From Candidatus Nomurabacteria bacterium (GTDB lineage: Bacteria; Patescibacteriota; Minisyncoccia; Phycocordibacterales; UBA9973), in NCBI GenBank assembly GCA_943350445.1, contig CALRAE010000002.1:2134-66133 (forward strand): DNA of 64,000 nucleotides, in the 5' to 3' direction. Below the pieces are notes generated by a model. The model was not told the origin of the DNA. It did no database searches and was given only the letters and a program-made list of their open reading frames with translations. The position numbers and the translations under genes were made by a program. Positions 45,768 to 54,254 of this stretch are shown here, piece by piece; position 1 is the first letter of the stretch, and the number at the start of each line of letters is the position of its first letter.

Positions 45768-48700
45768 GTGAAACAAAAAAATAAATTTTTTAGGGCATAT
45801 ATAAAAAGGTTTTCACTTGGACTCTTTGTCTTTGCTTTTTTTGTTTTTCTACCTACTTCTAGTGTATTTGCAGCAGCTACAAAAGACTCATTAATGAATG
45901 CTTTTAAGAGTTATGTAACTGTACTTACTACACCTGTTAACAATCAAGTAGTTACCACCACCCCACCTCCGGCACCCCTCCTTGATCAAGGAGGGGAAAG
46001 GGGTCCTAATCCTGTTTCTATTCCTGTAACACCACCACCCCCTTCGTCAAGCTCAGGGCAGGAAATAGTCTACGTCACACCACAACCTACAATAAACGAA
46101 GCAACCCTTCTTTCTGCTTTAAGAAACCTTCTCTCAAAAAAAGAAATTGCTAACAAATTACGTGGGTCACAAGGAGCACAAGGTATCCAAGGCCTTCAGG
46201 GTCCACAAGGAGCATCAGTTACACCAGCACCAAATCCTATCTCTTATCTACCTGTTCATATCTCATACCCTAATCCTTCTGTAAACTTCTCTGGTGGTGC
46301 TTCTGCAAACATAGCTAATCTATCTTCAAACATTCTCACTGCTACTACTTCTAATATTACTACTTTGAATGTGGCTGGAACTTCTACTCTTGCAGGAACT
46401 CTAAATGTCACTGGTGCCGTCACTCTTCCGTCTTCTGGAAGTTTAACTTCGCCTTTGGTTATTGGTTCTACATCTGCTAATGGCACTTTGACCTTAGAAG
46501 GTAACAACACTACAGGCAATACCGCAACTAATGCAAACTTAATATTCAAGGTTGGTAATAATGCAGCAACTACTGCGATGACTATTTTGAATAATGGCAA
46601 TGTGGGGGTGGGGACGACGACTCCAGGAAGATTTGTCGATTTGTTTTATACGGAGCCAGGTGCAACTCGTGCTTACAATTACCTACGTTTGACTGCTAAT
46701 AGTGCTGTGGGAGCTCATCATGGTACATCTGTCATCGAAGGATTTTATAAGGATAGTGGAAACGGTAATAGTTTTACTCACAGCCAGATCGCATTGGAGG
46801 GGACATCAGTCGGCAATGGTGCTGTAAATTCTATTGGTGAAATCTTGTTTTTGACAAAGTCAGATACAGGTAGCGCGTCAGCATTGCCTACTGAAAAGAT
46901 GCGTGTGACTAGTGATGGAAAATTACTTATTGGAACCAATCGAAATGGTACTGAGGATGGTGATTTGAGTTTCTATGGTATTTCCAATAGACTCATTTCT
47001 ATAGGATCAAATCCAAGTACCAATGTGGAAGGTAAAGACTTAACTATTAGGGCAGGAAATCCTTACCCGTCATCCACCAATCTAACAGGAGGGACTCTCA
47101 ATCTTTCAGGTGGAAAATCATCTGGCACAGGGACATCACAAATTCAATTCCAGACTGCTACCGCAGGTTCTACAGGAAACTCTGTTGTGACCCCAACAAC
47201 TAAAATGACAATTTTAGGTTCCGGCAACGTGGGGATTGGGACGACGAGTCCAGGTCTCCCACTCCAAGTTGTTGGTCACGTAAATGAATTTATTGCAGAT
47301 TTTTTATATAGCTCCTCTGGCTCAGGCGTTGCAGTTGGTGGTGGGGTTAATGGCACAACCGCATGGGTAGCGAGTGATTATCTTGGTGCGACTGAACCAA
47401 AACTACATTTAGCAACCTGGTCTAATCGTGCTAATGCAAATGGTATCACTATTGATACCTCTGGCAACGTCGGGATCGGGACGACGAATCCTAGTATCGG
47501 TTCGTGGGGTAAGGCTTTGACCATTCTTAATAACGGCTTGAACACTACCGCAGCCGCACTTGAAATTGCTTCTTTTGGACTCACAGCAGGAGACGGAGAA
47601 AGCGCTCTTAGTTTTGTAAATGGTGTTGATCTAGGTAATCGTTGGGAGGTGGGACGAATTCAGGCAATTCGTGGTGCTACCGACAATGGTTCAGGTCATA
47701 TTGCGCTATCTACACGAGTGAGTGCAACAGGAGGAGGTTTGGCTGAAGTGATGCGCTTGACTGACGATGGCAAAGTCGGTATCGGCGACACTACTCCAGA
47801 TTATAAATTAGACATAGAGACAGATGTTGCTTCGTATGTTGCCAACTTCTTCAATGATGGCAATCTTGCCACCCGTAGCGGTATCCTTATCCAAGGAGGC
47901 TTAGATGATCACACTGCAGCCGGACCATCCACTCTCATTGGTTTCCAAGATGGTGACGGTGGTGCTGTCGGATCAATCACTTTTGGTTCATCTGCCACAG
48001 CATACAACACTACATCAGACCAAAGATTAAAGAATTTAGTAAACGAAAATACTACTTCATCTCTCAATATCTTAAATCAAATAAAAATTCATGATTTCAC
48101 ATGGAAAGAAGATGCTAACCATAATCTATACACTGGAATCTTCGCTCAAGAGCTCTATGATGTTTATCCTCACGCAATTACTAAACCAATCAATGATGCA
48201 GACAACTGGATGGTGGATTATTCTAAACTCACCCCTGTAATGATCGCATCTATCCAAGAACTAGATCTAAACTTAAATAGTATCGCGGGCACTATCACTC
48301 CACTTGCTGGCTCAGCCAATGAATCTTTCGTGAATGCTTTCTTCGCAAACATTTTTTCCAAGGTTGATAATTGGATGGCGGATCGGGCGAATGGGATAGG
48401 AGATTTCTTTGCAGACAAAGTACATACAAAGCAAATCTGTGTTGCGAAAGCTGATGGCACAGAATTTTGTGCAGATGGTGACCAACTTCAAGCTATGGCA
48501 GGGGGATCAGGAACACCTCCAGCGCCAACCCCTACTCCAGCTCCAGTCCCCGCACCATCATCCGACACCACTCCACCAGTCATCACCCTCACAGGTGAAT
48601 CTACAATAACTTTAAACGTGGGAGACACATATACTGAACAAGGAGCCACAGCCACAGATAATGTAGACACAGGAGTAGCTGTCATAATCAGTGGTTCTGT

Positions 48701-48800
48701 AGATACATCTGTTGCAGGCACATACACTATCACTTATAATGCCACTGACACAGCAGGGAATAATGCGATAGAGGTGGCGAGGAGTGTAGTGGTTCAATAA
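45768..48800 (+). CDS. Large secreted fibre protein (GTG start). Collagen-like G-x-y triplets, repeated NVGIGTT(S/N)P beta-helix-like motifs, a peptidase-S74-type intramolecular chaperone domain, a Pro/Thr linker and a C-terminal Ig-like (DUF5011-type) domain
   Basis: Signal/TM N-terminus. GSQGAQGIQGLQGPQGAS. At least 4 NVGIGTTxP repeats. S-D-x-R-L-K motif TSDQRLKNL followed by ..GIFAQELYDVYPHAI..VDYSKLTPVMIASIQEL. (PT)n linker. C-terminus ITLTGESTITLNVGDTYTEQGATATDNVD..VAGTYTITYNATDTAGN. Confidence 0.6.
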   Translation: MKQKNKFFRAYIKRFSLGLFVFAFFVFLPTSSVFAAATKDSLMNAFKSYVTVLTTPVNNQVVTTTPPPAPLLDQGGERGPNPVSIPVTPPPPSSSSGQEIVYVTPQPTINEATLLSALRNLLSKKEIANKLRGSQGAQGIQGLQGPQGASVTPAPNPISYLPVHISYPNPSVNFSGGASANIANLSSNILTATTSNITTLNVAGTSTLAGTLNVTGAVTLPSSGSLTSPLVIGSTSANGTLTLEGNNTTGNTATNANLIFKVGNNAATTAMTILNNGNVGVGTTTPGRFVDLFYTEPGATRAYNYLRLTANSAVGAHHGTSVIEGFYKDSGNGNSFTHSQIALEGTSVGNGAVNSIGEILFLTKSDTGSASALPTEKMRVTSDGKLLIGTNRNGTEDGDLSFYGISNRLISIGSNPSTNVEGKDLTIRAGNPYPSSTNLTGGTLNLSGGKSSGTGTSQIQFQTATAGSTGNSVVTPTTKMTILGSGNVGIGTTSPGLPLQVVGHVNEFIADFLYSSSGSGVAVGGGVNGTTAWVASDYLGATEPKLHLATWSNRANANGITIDTSGNVGIGTTNPSIGSWGKALTILNNGLNTTAAALEIASFGLTAGDGESALSFVNGVDLGNRWEVGRIQAIRGATDNGSGHIALSTRVSATGGGLAEVMRLTDDGKVGIGDTTPDYKLDIETDVASYVANFFNDGNLATRSGILIQGGLDDHTAAGPSTLIGFQDGDGGAVGSITFGSSATAYNTTSDQRLKNLVNENTTSSLNILNQIKIHDFTWKEDANHNLYTGIFAQELYDVYPHAITKPINDADNWMVDYSKLTPVMIASIQELDLNLNSIAGTITPLAGSANESFVNAFFANIFSKVDNWMADRANGIGDFFADKVHTKQICVAKADGTEFCADGDQLQAMAGGSGTPPAPTPTPAPVPAPSSDTTPPVITLTGESTITLNVGDTYTEQGATATDNVDTGVAVIISGSVDTSVAGTYTITYNATDTAGNNAIEVARSVVVQ
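45951..45999. repeat. Family B element, copy in frame inside the fibre gene (encodes ..TTPPPAPLLDQGGERG..)
   Basis: GTTACCACCaCCCCAcctccggcaCCCCTCCTTGatcaAGGAGGGG, a close match to 45652..45690. Confidence 0.65.
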
Positions 48801-49325: not shown

Positions 49326-49535
49326 CACGACGGTGCGAGGAGCGGGTGGCGAAATTTTTCAACAGAAAAATATTTGCGACTACGGGTGGAGTTTTACTAA
49401 CTGAAACTTTTTGAAATATAACTTTTCTTTGGTACGGATTTTTCAATATAACCTTAGCCTTAAAAAATATTGAATTTCTGTGCGCGTCAGCCTACGAAAC
49501 CCCGCGAAAAGTTATATTTCGAAAAGTTTCTCACA

Positions 49536-49565
49536 AAAAGAAAATCCCCCGCTTTTGGCAGGGGA
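49536..49565 (-). terminator. Rho-independent terminator of rnpB
   Basis: Minus-strand read: CCCCUGC-caaaa-GCGGGGG followed by AUUUUCUUUUU. Confidence 0.55.
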
Positions 49566-49576
49566 CTTTCATTTTG

Positions 49577-50019
49577 TTGTAGGTGTCTATAAGCCGAATT
49601 TTGTCCCAATTTTGTTCACCACAGGTGATTCAAAATTGAGGACCCTGAGGATTTGTCGAAGGGTTCCCTCGACGTGGCTCGGGATGCTCAATTTTGTAAT
49701 TGCCTATGGCAAACAAAATTGGCAGATAACAATTTATCTAGGTCTAAAATTACTCTTAGACTCAAGCGATTCTTCCAAGCTTGCGCTTGGACACGATCTT
49801 GCACAGGGGTAAGGATTTAGCCGTTTCACTCTGATGTTACCACCAGACTATTCCATGGATTGCTCGATGGAACCCTAGCATCTCTGCATCAGCGTCTCTG
49901 CTCGCACCTATATATCACTATATGTGGGCGTTACCCACTACCTTTCTCCCTGATAAATCAGGGCTGTGTTCGGACTTTCCTCCCTATGAAATCATAGAGT
50001 AGCTATCCGACACCTACGC
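49577..50019 (-). ncRNA. rnpB: RNase P RNA (bacterial type)
   Basis: Minus-strand read has a P1 helix (GUAGGUGUC at the 5' end, GACACCUAC at the 3' end). It has P4 5' strand GGAGGAAAGUCCG, then ..GGUAACGCC.., then GGUGCGAGCAGAGACGC (P10-12-like), ..UGGUAACA..GGCUAAAUCC.. and P4 3' strand ACAAAAUUCGGCUUAUAG. TSS position fits the promoter. Confidence 0.8.
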
Positions 50020-50023
50020 ATAT

Positions 50024-50075
50024 ATTATACAATAGTTGCAATTTACTTGCAATTTTTTTGCAAGTATGCTATACT
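50024..50075. promoter_or_regulatory. Back-to-back sigma70-type promoters sharing one palindromic -35 hexamer. Minus strand: TTGCAA(50052..50047)-17 bp-TATAAT(50029..50024), driving rnpB. Plus strand: TTGCAA(50047..50052)-17 bp-TATACT(50070..50075). Two more TTGCAA copies lie at 50036 and 50058 on an 11-bp register.
   Basis: Hexamers and spacings counted directly. The minus TSS predicted ~7 nt after the -10 coincides with the rnpB P1 5' end (~50017). Confidence 0.55.
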
Positions 50076-50081
50076 AGTCTT

Positions 50082-50159
50082 GTGGGTGTGAGGTAAAATT
50101 CACATTTATCGTAAACAACATAAGTGCCGCAAAGACGCCCTTCGGGGCGTTTTTGTTTT
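50082..50159 (+). ncRNA. Candidate short transcript or 5' leader (~75 nt) from the plus-strand promoter, ending at an intrinsic terminator
   Basis: Predicted TSS ~50082. Internal hairpin GUGUGA..UCACAU. Terminator GACGCCC-uucg-GGGCGU + UUUUUGUUUUG. The methyltransferase ORF starts ~50 nt downstream. Confidence 0.35.
50134..50159 (+). terminator. Rho-independent terminator
   Basis: GACGCCC-TTCG-GGGCGT followed by TTTTTGTTTTG. Confidence 0.6.
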
Positions 50160-50205
50160 GTTAAGGAAATTGTATTATAGTGTATAAGCCCCCCTTAATG
50201 GACGG

Positions 50206-51021
50206 TTGCGCGGCATGATTTCGCTAAATCATATGAAAAAAGATACTTCTAAAAATAATTCCGGTGAGACTTCGTGGGGCTCTGTAGCAGGGTGGTATGA
50301 CGAGCTCTTAGAAGAATCAGACGATTCCTTTCAGGCGAAGGTTATTTTACCGAACCTGCTCCGAGTTCTTAATGTTAAGGCGGGTATGAACATAATTGAT
50401 ATTGCTTGTGGGCAGGGATATTTTAGTCGGGCGCTTGAAAATGCTGGGGCGCAGGTGACTGGTGTGGATATATCAAGTGAACTTATAAAAAAAGCGCAAG
50501 AACGTTCTCCTAAAAATATCAGTTTTTGTGTCGCCGAAGCGGACAAACTCTCTTTTTCAAAAGATGCTAGTTATGATGCAGCCATAATTATTTTAGCTAT
50601 TCAAAATATTAAAAATTTCGCTGGCGCGCTAGCTGAGTCCGCGCGGGTTCTCAAACCAAAAGGCAAGCTTGTGATTGTTTTAAATCATCCAGCATTTCGA
50701 ATTCCGCAAAATTCTAGTTGGGATTGGGATGTAAAGAAGGGGAGGCAGTATCGCCGAATCGATTCTTATTTAAAAGAATATCAGATAGAGATAGATATGA
50801 CCCCCGGGGAAAAAGATCCATCCAAGAAAAAGAAAACACTTTCATTTCATCGACCACTTCAATCTTATTTTAAATTCTTAAACAAAGCCGGATTTGCTGT
50901 CTCGGGTCTAGAAGAATTAATTTCTCACAAAAAGAGTCAAAAAGGTCCGCGCTCAATAGAAGAGGACAGGATACGTAAAGAAATTCCAATGTTTCTGATG
51001 CTAGAAGCTAAAAAGCTTTAA
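50206..51021 (+). CDS. Class I SAM-dependent methyltransferase
   Basis: Motif I IIDIACGQGYFSRAL. Acidic post-I residue. Methyltransf_11/25-like. Confidence 0.65.
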   Translation: MRGMISLNHMKKDTSKNNSGETSWGSVAGWYDELLEESDDSFQAKVILPNLLRVLNVKAGMNIIDIACGQGYFSRALENAGAQVTGVDISSELIKKAQERSPKNISFCVAEADKLSFSKDASYDAAIIILAIQNIKNFAGALAESARVLKPKGKLVIVLNHPAFRIPQNSSWDWDVKKGRQYRRIDSYLKEYQIEIDMTPGEKDPSKKKKTLSFHRPLQSYFKFLNKAGFAVSGLEELISHKKSQKGPRSIEEDRIRKEIPMFLMLEAKKL

Positions 51022-54146: not shown

Positions 54147-54254
54147 ATATCTAGAATAAATATGTTTTCAACTAAAAACTTGTTGTTTTTATAAAAGTAT
54201 GTTATTATAAATTTAGTTAAAAACAGGCCTTCGGGCTTTTTTGTTTAACCCAAT

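Follow-up and report, generated by a model that had tools for sequence, protein, structure and literature searches.

The window, by which we mean the whole 64-kb stretch of Patescibacterial DNA that was analysed, carries two non-coding RNA genes that point away from each other in the gap between a DUF192 gene and a methyltransferase gene. The leftward one is rnpB, the RNA component of RNase P, and the rightward one encodes a small RNA of about 80 nt. The methyltransferase (ATG at 50233) is the first open reading frame that would be met rightward of the small RNA's promoter. The two promoters lie back to back in the sequence between 50024 and 50075, and one hexamer stands at the -35 position of both.

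The leftward gene is a class-A RNase P RNA (49574-50018, minus strand) matching RF00010 over model positions 1-367 with 88.3 bits and E = 3e-27. Unlike typical RF00010 members, it scores under the Rfam gathering threshold of 100; it was absent from the default scan and found by a permissive one. The gene contains GAGGAAAGUCC and the 3' segment ACAAAAUUCGGCUUAUAG, and both universally conserved P4 sequences (GAGGAAAGUCCG and ACAAAAUUCGGCUUAUAG) were found. It is 81% identical to the copy in L005, a Patescibacterial MAG. Near its 3' end (about 49603-49709, minus strand), between the CCUAGAUAAAU segment and ACAAAAUUCGG, it has an insertion of ~107 nt without counterpart in L005, which has only a short GC hairpin at that place. 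This insertion, together with other deviations, explains the score below the gathering threshold, and default annotation would miss the gene. Directly 3' of the RNase P RNA match lies an intrinsic terminator (49540-49570, minus strand) with a 13-bp stem, including 7 GC pairs, followed by a T-run.

On comparative grounds, the rightward unit is a discrete conserved sRNA gene (50082-50163, plus strand), an identity that the first-pass annotation had missed. A 5' stem-loop (50082-50109) is followed by a single-stranded core (about 50110-50133) and a terminator (50129-50156) with its T-run. The stem-loop has 11 bp and includes the very first nucleotides from the predicted start, G50082; the predicted fold has a minimum free energy of -28.7 kcal/mol (z = -3.8) and a single-stranded stretch of ~25 nt. 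A 32-nt stretch of the sRNA is 100% identical in L005, and the exact core ACATTTATCGTAAACNNNNTANGTGCCGCAA occurs in 59 metagenome contigs, which reduce to 54 distinct loci after deduplication, with L005 and L006 in addition. As the metagenome loci were retrieved through this exact 26-base core, they form a biased and phylogenetically non-independent sample. All distinct loci have the 5' sequence GTGAGTGTGAGG, covarying closing pairs in the stem-loop, the core, and a terminator whose stems and loops are free to differ in sequence while the pairing is kept. Across the alignment, 97% of the cells of the proposed structure can pair, versus 88% in shuffles, and compensatory changes occur in eight pairs, including all six terminator pairs. 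The window's sRNA matches the covariance model of the family with 87.8 bits.

Within the family (L083-L141, L005 and L006), whose contigs are Patescibacterial and come from groundwater, peat and lake samples, an invariant 5' GUGAGUGUGAGG pairs with CUCACAUUUAU ahead of the variable terminator, and the single-stranded core CGUAAACAACAUAAGUGCCGCAAAA is conserved, with ..AAUGUAUG.. as a second common variant. A minority core variant, CGUAAACGAUG, is found in L006, L131 and L117, in place of the majority CGUAAACAACAU (50110-50125 in the window). This variant is identical in sense to what we take to be a universally conserved segment of 16S rRNA near E. coli positions 810-820 (..GCCGUAAACGAUG..), an 11-mer identity that may be due to chance.

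A permissive scan of the window's sRNA against Rfam 15 (E up to 10) gave no credible family; the best match scored 22.8 bits against a gathering score of 55, and the matches were driven by the terminator. Searches of the literature for a Patescibacterial sRNA adjoining rnpB returned nothing relevant. The sRNA family is previously unannotated and is the more novel by-product of the analysis; it should help annotation and offers a candidate for functional work.

We considered and rejected two other identities for this RNA. A cis-acting leader of the methyltransferase can be set aside on three counts: the genes downstream of the sRNA differ among loci, in relatives a separate -10-like element, TATAGT, closely precedes the ATG of the methyltransferase, and the covariance model finds no sRNA copy near 78 other methyltransferase loci. 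These belong to a set of 80 genome loci collected by synteny with the downstream methyltransferase, among which the sRNA was present only in L005 and L006 and rnpB only in L005. A coding gene was rejected as well, as both the frame and the length of the 5' stem-loop vary. A predicted duplex between the sRNA core and rnpB (-16.0 kcal/mol) equals background (-15.9 +/- 3.7), and no target within the 64-kb window stood out.

The sRNA gene and rnpB occur together well beyond the window. Among ~49 informative loci, rnpB adjoins the sRNA in ~43, in either orientation: 20 loci are divergent, and about 23-24 are tandem, in the order rnpB, terminator, sRNA promoter. An adjacent rnpB is absent in about six loci with adequate flanking sequence. 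Such frequent adjacency hints at a functional link. The orientation can differ between close relatives: in L147 and L148 the methyltransferase is 78% identical to that of the window, yet rnpB and the sRNA are in tandem. Comparing these two loci with the window and L142-144 (methyltransferases 78-87% identical), both the orientation of rnpB and its P1 sequence type differ, and rnpB appears to have been inverted or replaced recently among these lineages.

Between the two RNA genes, reading the sequence directly, we find three copies of TTGCAA (50036-50041, 50047-50052 and 50058-50063) in an 11-bp register; Tandem Repeats Finder describes the region as 2.5 copies of the unit TTGCAATTTAC with a period of 11. 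The central copy lies 17 bp from a -10 box on either side and would be the -35 of the rnpB promoter on the minus strand and of the sRNA promoter on the plus strand. On the minus strand, it is separated by the spacer 50030-50046 from TATAAT (50029..50024, plus-strand ATTATA), whose predicted start is G50017. On the plus strand, it is separated by the spacer 50053-50069 from TATACT (50070-50075), whose predicted start is G50082. The plus-strand spacer holds a T-run, the right-hand TTGCAA and, directly before TATACT, the sequence TATGc (50065-50069), an extended -10 or '-16' motif. In the rnpB direction, this T-run appears as an A7 tract immediately upstream of the -35. Forty bp separate the -10 boxes and 65 bp the predicted starts, from which the promoters would drive rnpB leftward and the terminated sRNA rightward.

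Both promoters have their hexamers within the 17 +/- 1 bp of sigma-70-type spacing, and a promoter scanner listed the two sites independently. The minus-strand site, with 10 of 12 matches, ranks first within 3 kb; the plus-strand site has 9 of 12 matches to the sigma-70-type consensus, with the TG, by a standard from which Patescibacterial rules may differ. The arrangement of 17 bp to each side of the central TTGCAA, as the first-pass annotation had described it, is correct from both the sequence and the scanner.

How much weight can the geometry bear by itself? The window has 31 copies of TTGCAA where 35 +/- 6 are expected, so the hexamer is not enriched. In Markov-1 simulations, an equally spaced triple of any hexamer (7-15 bp) arises 0.09 times per 64 kb and a double promoter with a shared hexamer 0.08 times per 64 kb. 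The window has one of each, and these coincide, between two RNA genes. The geometry alone is thus modestly improbable, which is suggestive but not compelling, and it is the comparative data that carry the case.

The sRNA promoter is very strongly conserved. Aligning 44 sRNA loci on their -10 boxes gives the consensus cTTGC(a/t)TTTTTwTTkCAAgTATGcTATACT-N6-GTGAGTGTGAGG, in which the T, A, C and T at positions 1, 2, 5 and 6 of the -10 are invariant. Nearly every column of the spacer is conserved, and conservation ends abruptly upstream of -24. The window's central TTGCAA is homologous to the conserved TTGC(A/T)T of the -35, and its right-hand TTGCAA corresponds to the TTkCAAg segment of the conserved spacer. 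At its 5' end the sRNA is conserved and base-paired from the predicted start, G50082, onward. The proposal of a plus-strand promoter at this site is therefore borne out by its conservation almost base for base across the 44 aligned loci and by an RNA structure that begins at the predicted +1.

For rnpB, the evidence lies in the position of the -10. The window's TATAAT is 6 nt from the 5' end of the class-A RNA, and a TAnnnT hexamer stands exactly 6 nt from the P1 strand in all 20 divergent loci. Tandem loci, read by eye, mostly have a -10-like hexamer (for example, TATAAT) a few nucleotides upstream of the predicted P1. Because the position of the -10 is fixed relative to P1 in relatives, rnpB is most likely transcribed from its mature 5' end. 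The predicted start G50017 is one base from covariance-model position 1 (50018), in agreement, to within 1 nt, with the match between start and P1 5' end that had been claimed from the sequence. In E. coli, the primary transcription start of rnpB is likewise the mature 5' end, and in the window and its relatives, as at the E. coli rnpB promoter, the -10 places the start at the first base of P1.

Where the two promoters are divergent, their relative placement takes only a few discrete values. Measured from the sRNA -35, the offset of the rnpB -35 in the 20 divergent loci is quantised at +11, 0, -11 and -41 bp. Eleven loci have an offset of +11 bp, an 'interdigitated' layout in which each -35 lies inside the spacer of the other promoter and the rnpB -35 reads TTGNNA (TGGAAA in L139). 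Seven loci, including the window, have an offset of 0 bp, the 'shared' hexamer. The -35 elements are separate in L112, the one locus at -11 bp, and L132, the one locus at -41 bp, has a fully separate rnpB promoter (TTGAAG-17-TATGcTATAAT). The first-pass annotation had proposed looking for the same arrangement upstream of rnpB in related genomes. The 17+6+17 geometry does recur, in the six other shared-class loci; the perfect palindrome does not, being confined at the central position to the window while those six loci have TTGCAT, and the layout is flexible. Layouts as varied as these, some of them tandem or with fully separate promoters, are not what a conserved regulatory switch would lead one to expect.

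Since the elements of both promoters are positionally conserved relative to the 5' ends of their RNAs in relatives, both promoters are very probably real, with one hexamer serving both in the window. We consider it probable, on this comparative evidence, that the locus consists of two back-to-back sigma-70-type promoters sharing 50047-50052, in a register variant that arose by an 11-bp duplication.

The closest competitor to this reading is that the promoters overlap without truly sharing a -35, the central hexamer working for the sRNA only and rnpB relying on its -10. In the six other shared-class loci, the hexamer reads ATGCAA in the rnpB direction, with 3 of 6 matches to TTGACA, and all six have a TRTGn extended -10, a motif that can substitute for a -35 in other bacteria. 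With so poor a reading beside an extended -10, the rnpB -35 may be of small importance in these six of the seven shared-class loci. The window, however, stands alone in its class: it has no TRTGn or TGn (TATTG precedes TATAAT), and it is the sole locus to read TTGCAA toward rnpB. It looks as if -35 quality and the extended -10 compensate each other at rnpB, and the palindrome, specific to the window genome, is plausibly adaptive for rnpB.

Two further patterns argue against the overlap being incidental. All 7 shared-class loci have an A at position 5 of the sRNA -35, which puts a T second in the hexamer as read toward rnpB; only 7 of 24 tandem loci have this A, TTGCTT being the usual form among them (raw counts over related loci). 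And the 11-bp quantisation keeps a TTG-type hexamer 16-18 bp (mostly 17) from the rnpB -10 in 18 of the 20 divergent loci. At the right-hand hexamer, 10 of 11 loci with offset +11 retain CAA, which is TTG in the rnpB direction, versus about 14 of 24 tandem loci, again as raw counts over related loci. Inspection by eye of one tandem locus, L089, showed no -10 at the position required for a divergent promoter behind the conserved CAAG. We infer that the central hexamer contributes to rnpB transcription in the window and regard overlap without sharing as unlikely.

The conservation of the sRNA spacer raises another possibility, that the inverted repeat CTTGC-N9-GCAAG is an operator for an sRNA-specific repressor, with the hexamer a half-site first and a -35 second. 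The spacer is indeed conserved far beyond what is normal for a spacer, and C-24/TTG and CAA/G-6 stay conserved and complementary whatever the orientation of rnpB, tandem loci without a divergent promoter included. However, 38 unrelated promoter-like sites (L004-L141) show the same trends: a C before the TTG, a spacer that is T-rich and then A-rich, and TRTGnTAnnnT. Because these unrelated sites share the pattern, part of the sRNA spacer conservation would be general promoter grammar of the clade, and the features of the supposed operator are largely accounted for by it. In addition, the complementary pair at -20/-10 is mostly lost, and C-9 and G-6 are conserved only about 60%. We therefore think a dedicated repressor site here quite improbable.

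Provisionally, then, cTTGnnn, a T-rich to A-rich spacer and TRTGnTAnnnT may be taken as the promoter consensus for these Patescibacteria. Two further sites in the window follow the clade pattern cTTGnCw...TRTGnTAnnnT (24037-24066 and 54179-54208, both on the plus strand), and the window's contig carries a gene with a Sigma70_r4 domain. The locus and its about 50 relatives give an internally controlled view of promoter grammar in uncultured Patescibacteria: a natural experiment in which the same gene pair occurs in layouts differing by exact 11-bp steps while a usable -35 spacing is kept.

The origin of the triple TTGCAA array can be approached through the same relatives. Multiple alignment of the offset +11 and offset 0 classes shows a clean 11-bp indel. 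The closest syntenic relative, L094 (the same as L142-144), has the order DUF192-rnpB-sRNA-methyltransferase, with a methyltransferase 87% identical to the window's, and it has just two hexamers, TTGCAA and TTACAA. The window's left-hand copy (50036-50041), which lies within the rnpB spacer, falls in an 11-bp block that is missing from all offset +11 loci, this relative included. Five of the six other shared-class loci have a degenerate left unit (TTCCAT, TTATAT, TTTCTT and CTTCCT). The exception is L129, where the unit CTTGCATTTTG is visibly duplicated and the sRNA resembles that of the two-hexamer locus L090. At the position of the right-hand copy, the 11 offset +11 loci have their rnpB -35; the copy itself is present also where rnpB is not divergent.

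The ancestral-looking state would have had two TTGCA-type hexamers 11 bp apart, each the -35 of one promoter inside the spacer of the other. An 11-bp tandem duplication of the hexamer-plus-T-run unit would place the rnpB -10 one unit farther out; both promoters would then have the middle copy in common, and a functionless third copy, the left-hand one, would remain in the rnpB spacer as a duplicate with no promoter role. Recurrent slippage of this 11-bp unit, a hexamer with five T-rich bases, would change the layout in a register that keeps a hexamer 17 bp from each -10. The direction of the change, duplication rather than deletion, is drawn from one outgroup and residual repeat similarity. 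In a neighbour-joining tree of rnpB, built without support values, the layout classes are interspersed, which is only suggestive.

The triple array is thus best read as a register-keeping 11-bp duplication and not as a regulator site, since slippage of the unit suffices to explain both the repeat and its register without a regulator. The alternative would make the three phased palindromes an operator array of a dimeric DNA-binding protein controlling both genes. In its favour, all three hexamers are perfect palindromes and, with a phasing of 11 bp, lie on the same side of the helix; L129 likewise has three TTGCA-type hexamers in register. Yet the left copy is missing in the nearest relative and degenerate in most of the shared class, the central hexamer is a non-palindromic TTGCAT or TTGCTT in nearly all loci, and no regulator gene was consistently adjacent among the loci examined. 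A word used by such a protein might be expected to recur, and TTGCAA is unenriched in the window, where the phased triple occurs once in 64 kb. We consider such an array very unlikely. The suggestions of the first-pass annotation that the triple forms a functional unit and that the flanking hexamers could be a regulator site are not supported here, given a left copy that is not conserved, a right copy that is part of the conserved sRNA spacer, and a window-wide count of TTGCAA no higher than expected. However striking, a local repeat is not necessarily a regulator site.

It is scarcely credible that either hexamer pair, or both, matches the consensus by chance in this AT-rich intergenic DNA. 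Promoter-like matches are common (10 versus 6.7 expected in 3 kb), and a shared-hexamer pair is expected about 0.08 times per window, but in dozens of divergent contigs both elements keep their distance from the 5' ends of the RNAs.

Two back-to-back promoters with one -35 may interfere with each other. E. coli RNA polymerase has a footprint of roughly -55 to +20, and with starts 65 bp apart and an identical -35, the polymerase footprints at the window promoters would overlap. Going by E. coli structures, the two sigma region-4 domains would have to contact a single major groove, so that simultaneous binding of two holoenzymes would be unlikely. It is plausible that two RNA polymerases are unable to bind both promoters at once, and the mutually exclusive transcription predicted in the first-pass annotation is a reasonable expectation. 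If double occupancy is impossible, rnpB and the sRNA would compete whenever occupancy is high. Competition between the two promoters is plausible since both are near-consensus and drive stable RNAs. In bidirectional E. coli promoters that share a -10, there was no measurable competition at basal activity and strong competition once one direction was strengthened (PMC12825309).

A more ambitious interpretation, which we regard as doubtful, is that rnpB and the sRNA form a functional module, the sRNA either working with RNase P, as its partner or regulator, or being a housekeeping RNA under common control, with their adjacency selected, the promoter overlap setting the ratio of the two RNAs and 11-bp slippage tuning it. 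If this were true, selection would keep the sRNA beside rnpB in either orientation across Patescibacteria, polymerase competition at the overlapping promoters would set the rnpB:sRNA ratio in divergent lineages, and 11-bp slippage would let evolution tune the pair between its 'interdigitated' and 'shared' forms.

The window locus is a back-to-back, overlapping pair of divergent promoters, a long-known class. Beck and Warren reportedly classified such back-to-back (divergent, overlapping) bacterial promoters in 1988; examples include E. coli bioA/bioBFCD, Tn10 tetA/tetR and pairs of a LysR-type regulator and its target. As in these, two sigma-70 promoters lie on opposite strands with their polymerase regions overlapping upstream of the -10 boxes, leaving room for competition. 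The window differs from these in that the genes driven are both for stable non-coding RNAs, neither a regulator gene nor a recognisable operator being present. It also differs in the exactness of the overlap, where a single palindromic hexamer provides both -35 boxes, and in the discrete 11-bp register variants in which relatives have this pair. What is new here is this 11-bp register series among relatives, together with the sRNA family linked to rnpB.

The locus is also the topological opposite of -10-sharing promoters. Bidirectional promoters with -10 symmetry share the -10 and have their -35 boxes on the outside, with 18 (or 10 or 23) bp between the starts (PMC12825309; PMC10268837). The likeness is a short symmetric element that can be read both ways, so that one binding event would exclude the other. 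The window instead shares the -35, with the -10 boxes outside, 40 bp apart, and starts separated by about 65 bp. In its extended -10, the locus recalls the TRTG promoters of Gram-positive bacteria, whose '-16 region' was reportedly described by Voskuil and Chambliss in 1998: TATGnTATACT is found at the sRNA, and TRTGn at most shared-class rnpB promoters and at other sites of the clade. The host here, unlike theirs, is a Patescibacterium, of the Paceibacteria/Parcubacteria type to go by the names carried by homologues and contigs, and in it conservation is what points to a role for the motif.

Several smaller features surround the pair. Just upstream of the DUF192 gene, 45768-48800 (plus strand) encodes a predicted surface protein of 1010 aa with Peptidase_S74 and bacterial Ig-like domains and a low-complexity central region rich in T, S, G and N. 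Between the DUF192 gene and the rnpB terminator, a 25-nt inverted repeat (49403-49427 and 49506-49530, 96% complementary) flanks 78 nt, and no other copy of it was found in the window; the region could be a small insertion element or a structured RNA. The whole gap from the DUF192 gene to the methyltransferase is about 380 nt shorter in the closest relative, L142-144.

On the other side, the methyltransferase has its own conserved element, TTGTAyTATAGTGTAA (within 50170-50233, plus strand, in the window; 815-835 in L005; 70-95 in L006; about 1480-1501 in L142). In relatives, its ATG begins 6-8 nt after TATAGT, which suggests that their methyltransferase mRNA is leaderless. In the window, about 50 extra bases, with in-frame TTG and ATG codons, lie between the TATAGT element and the ATG at 50233.
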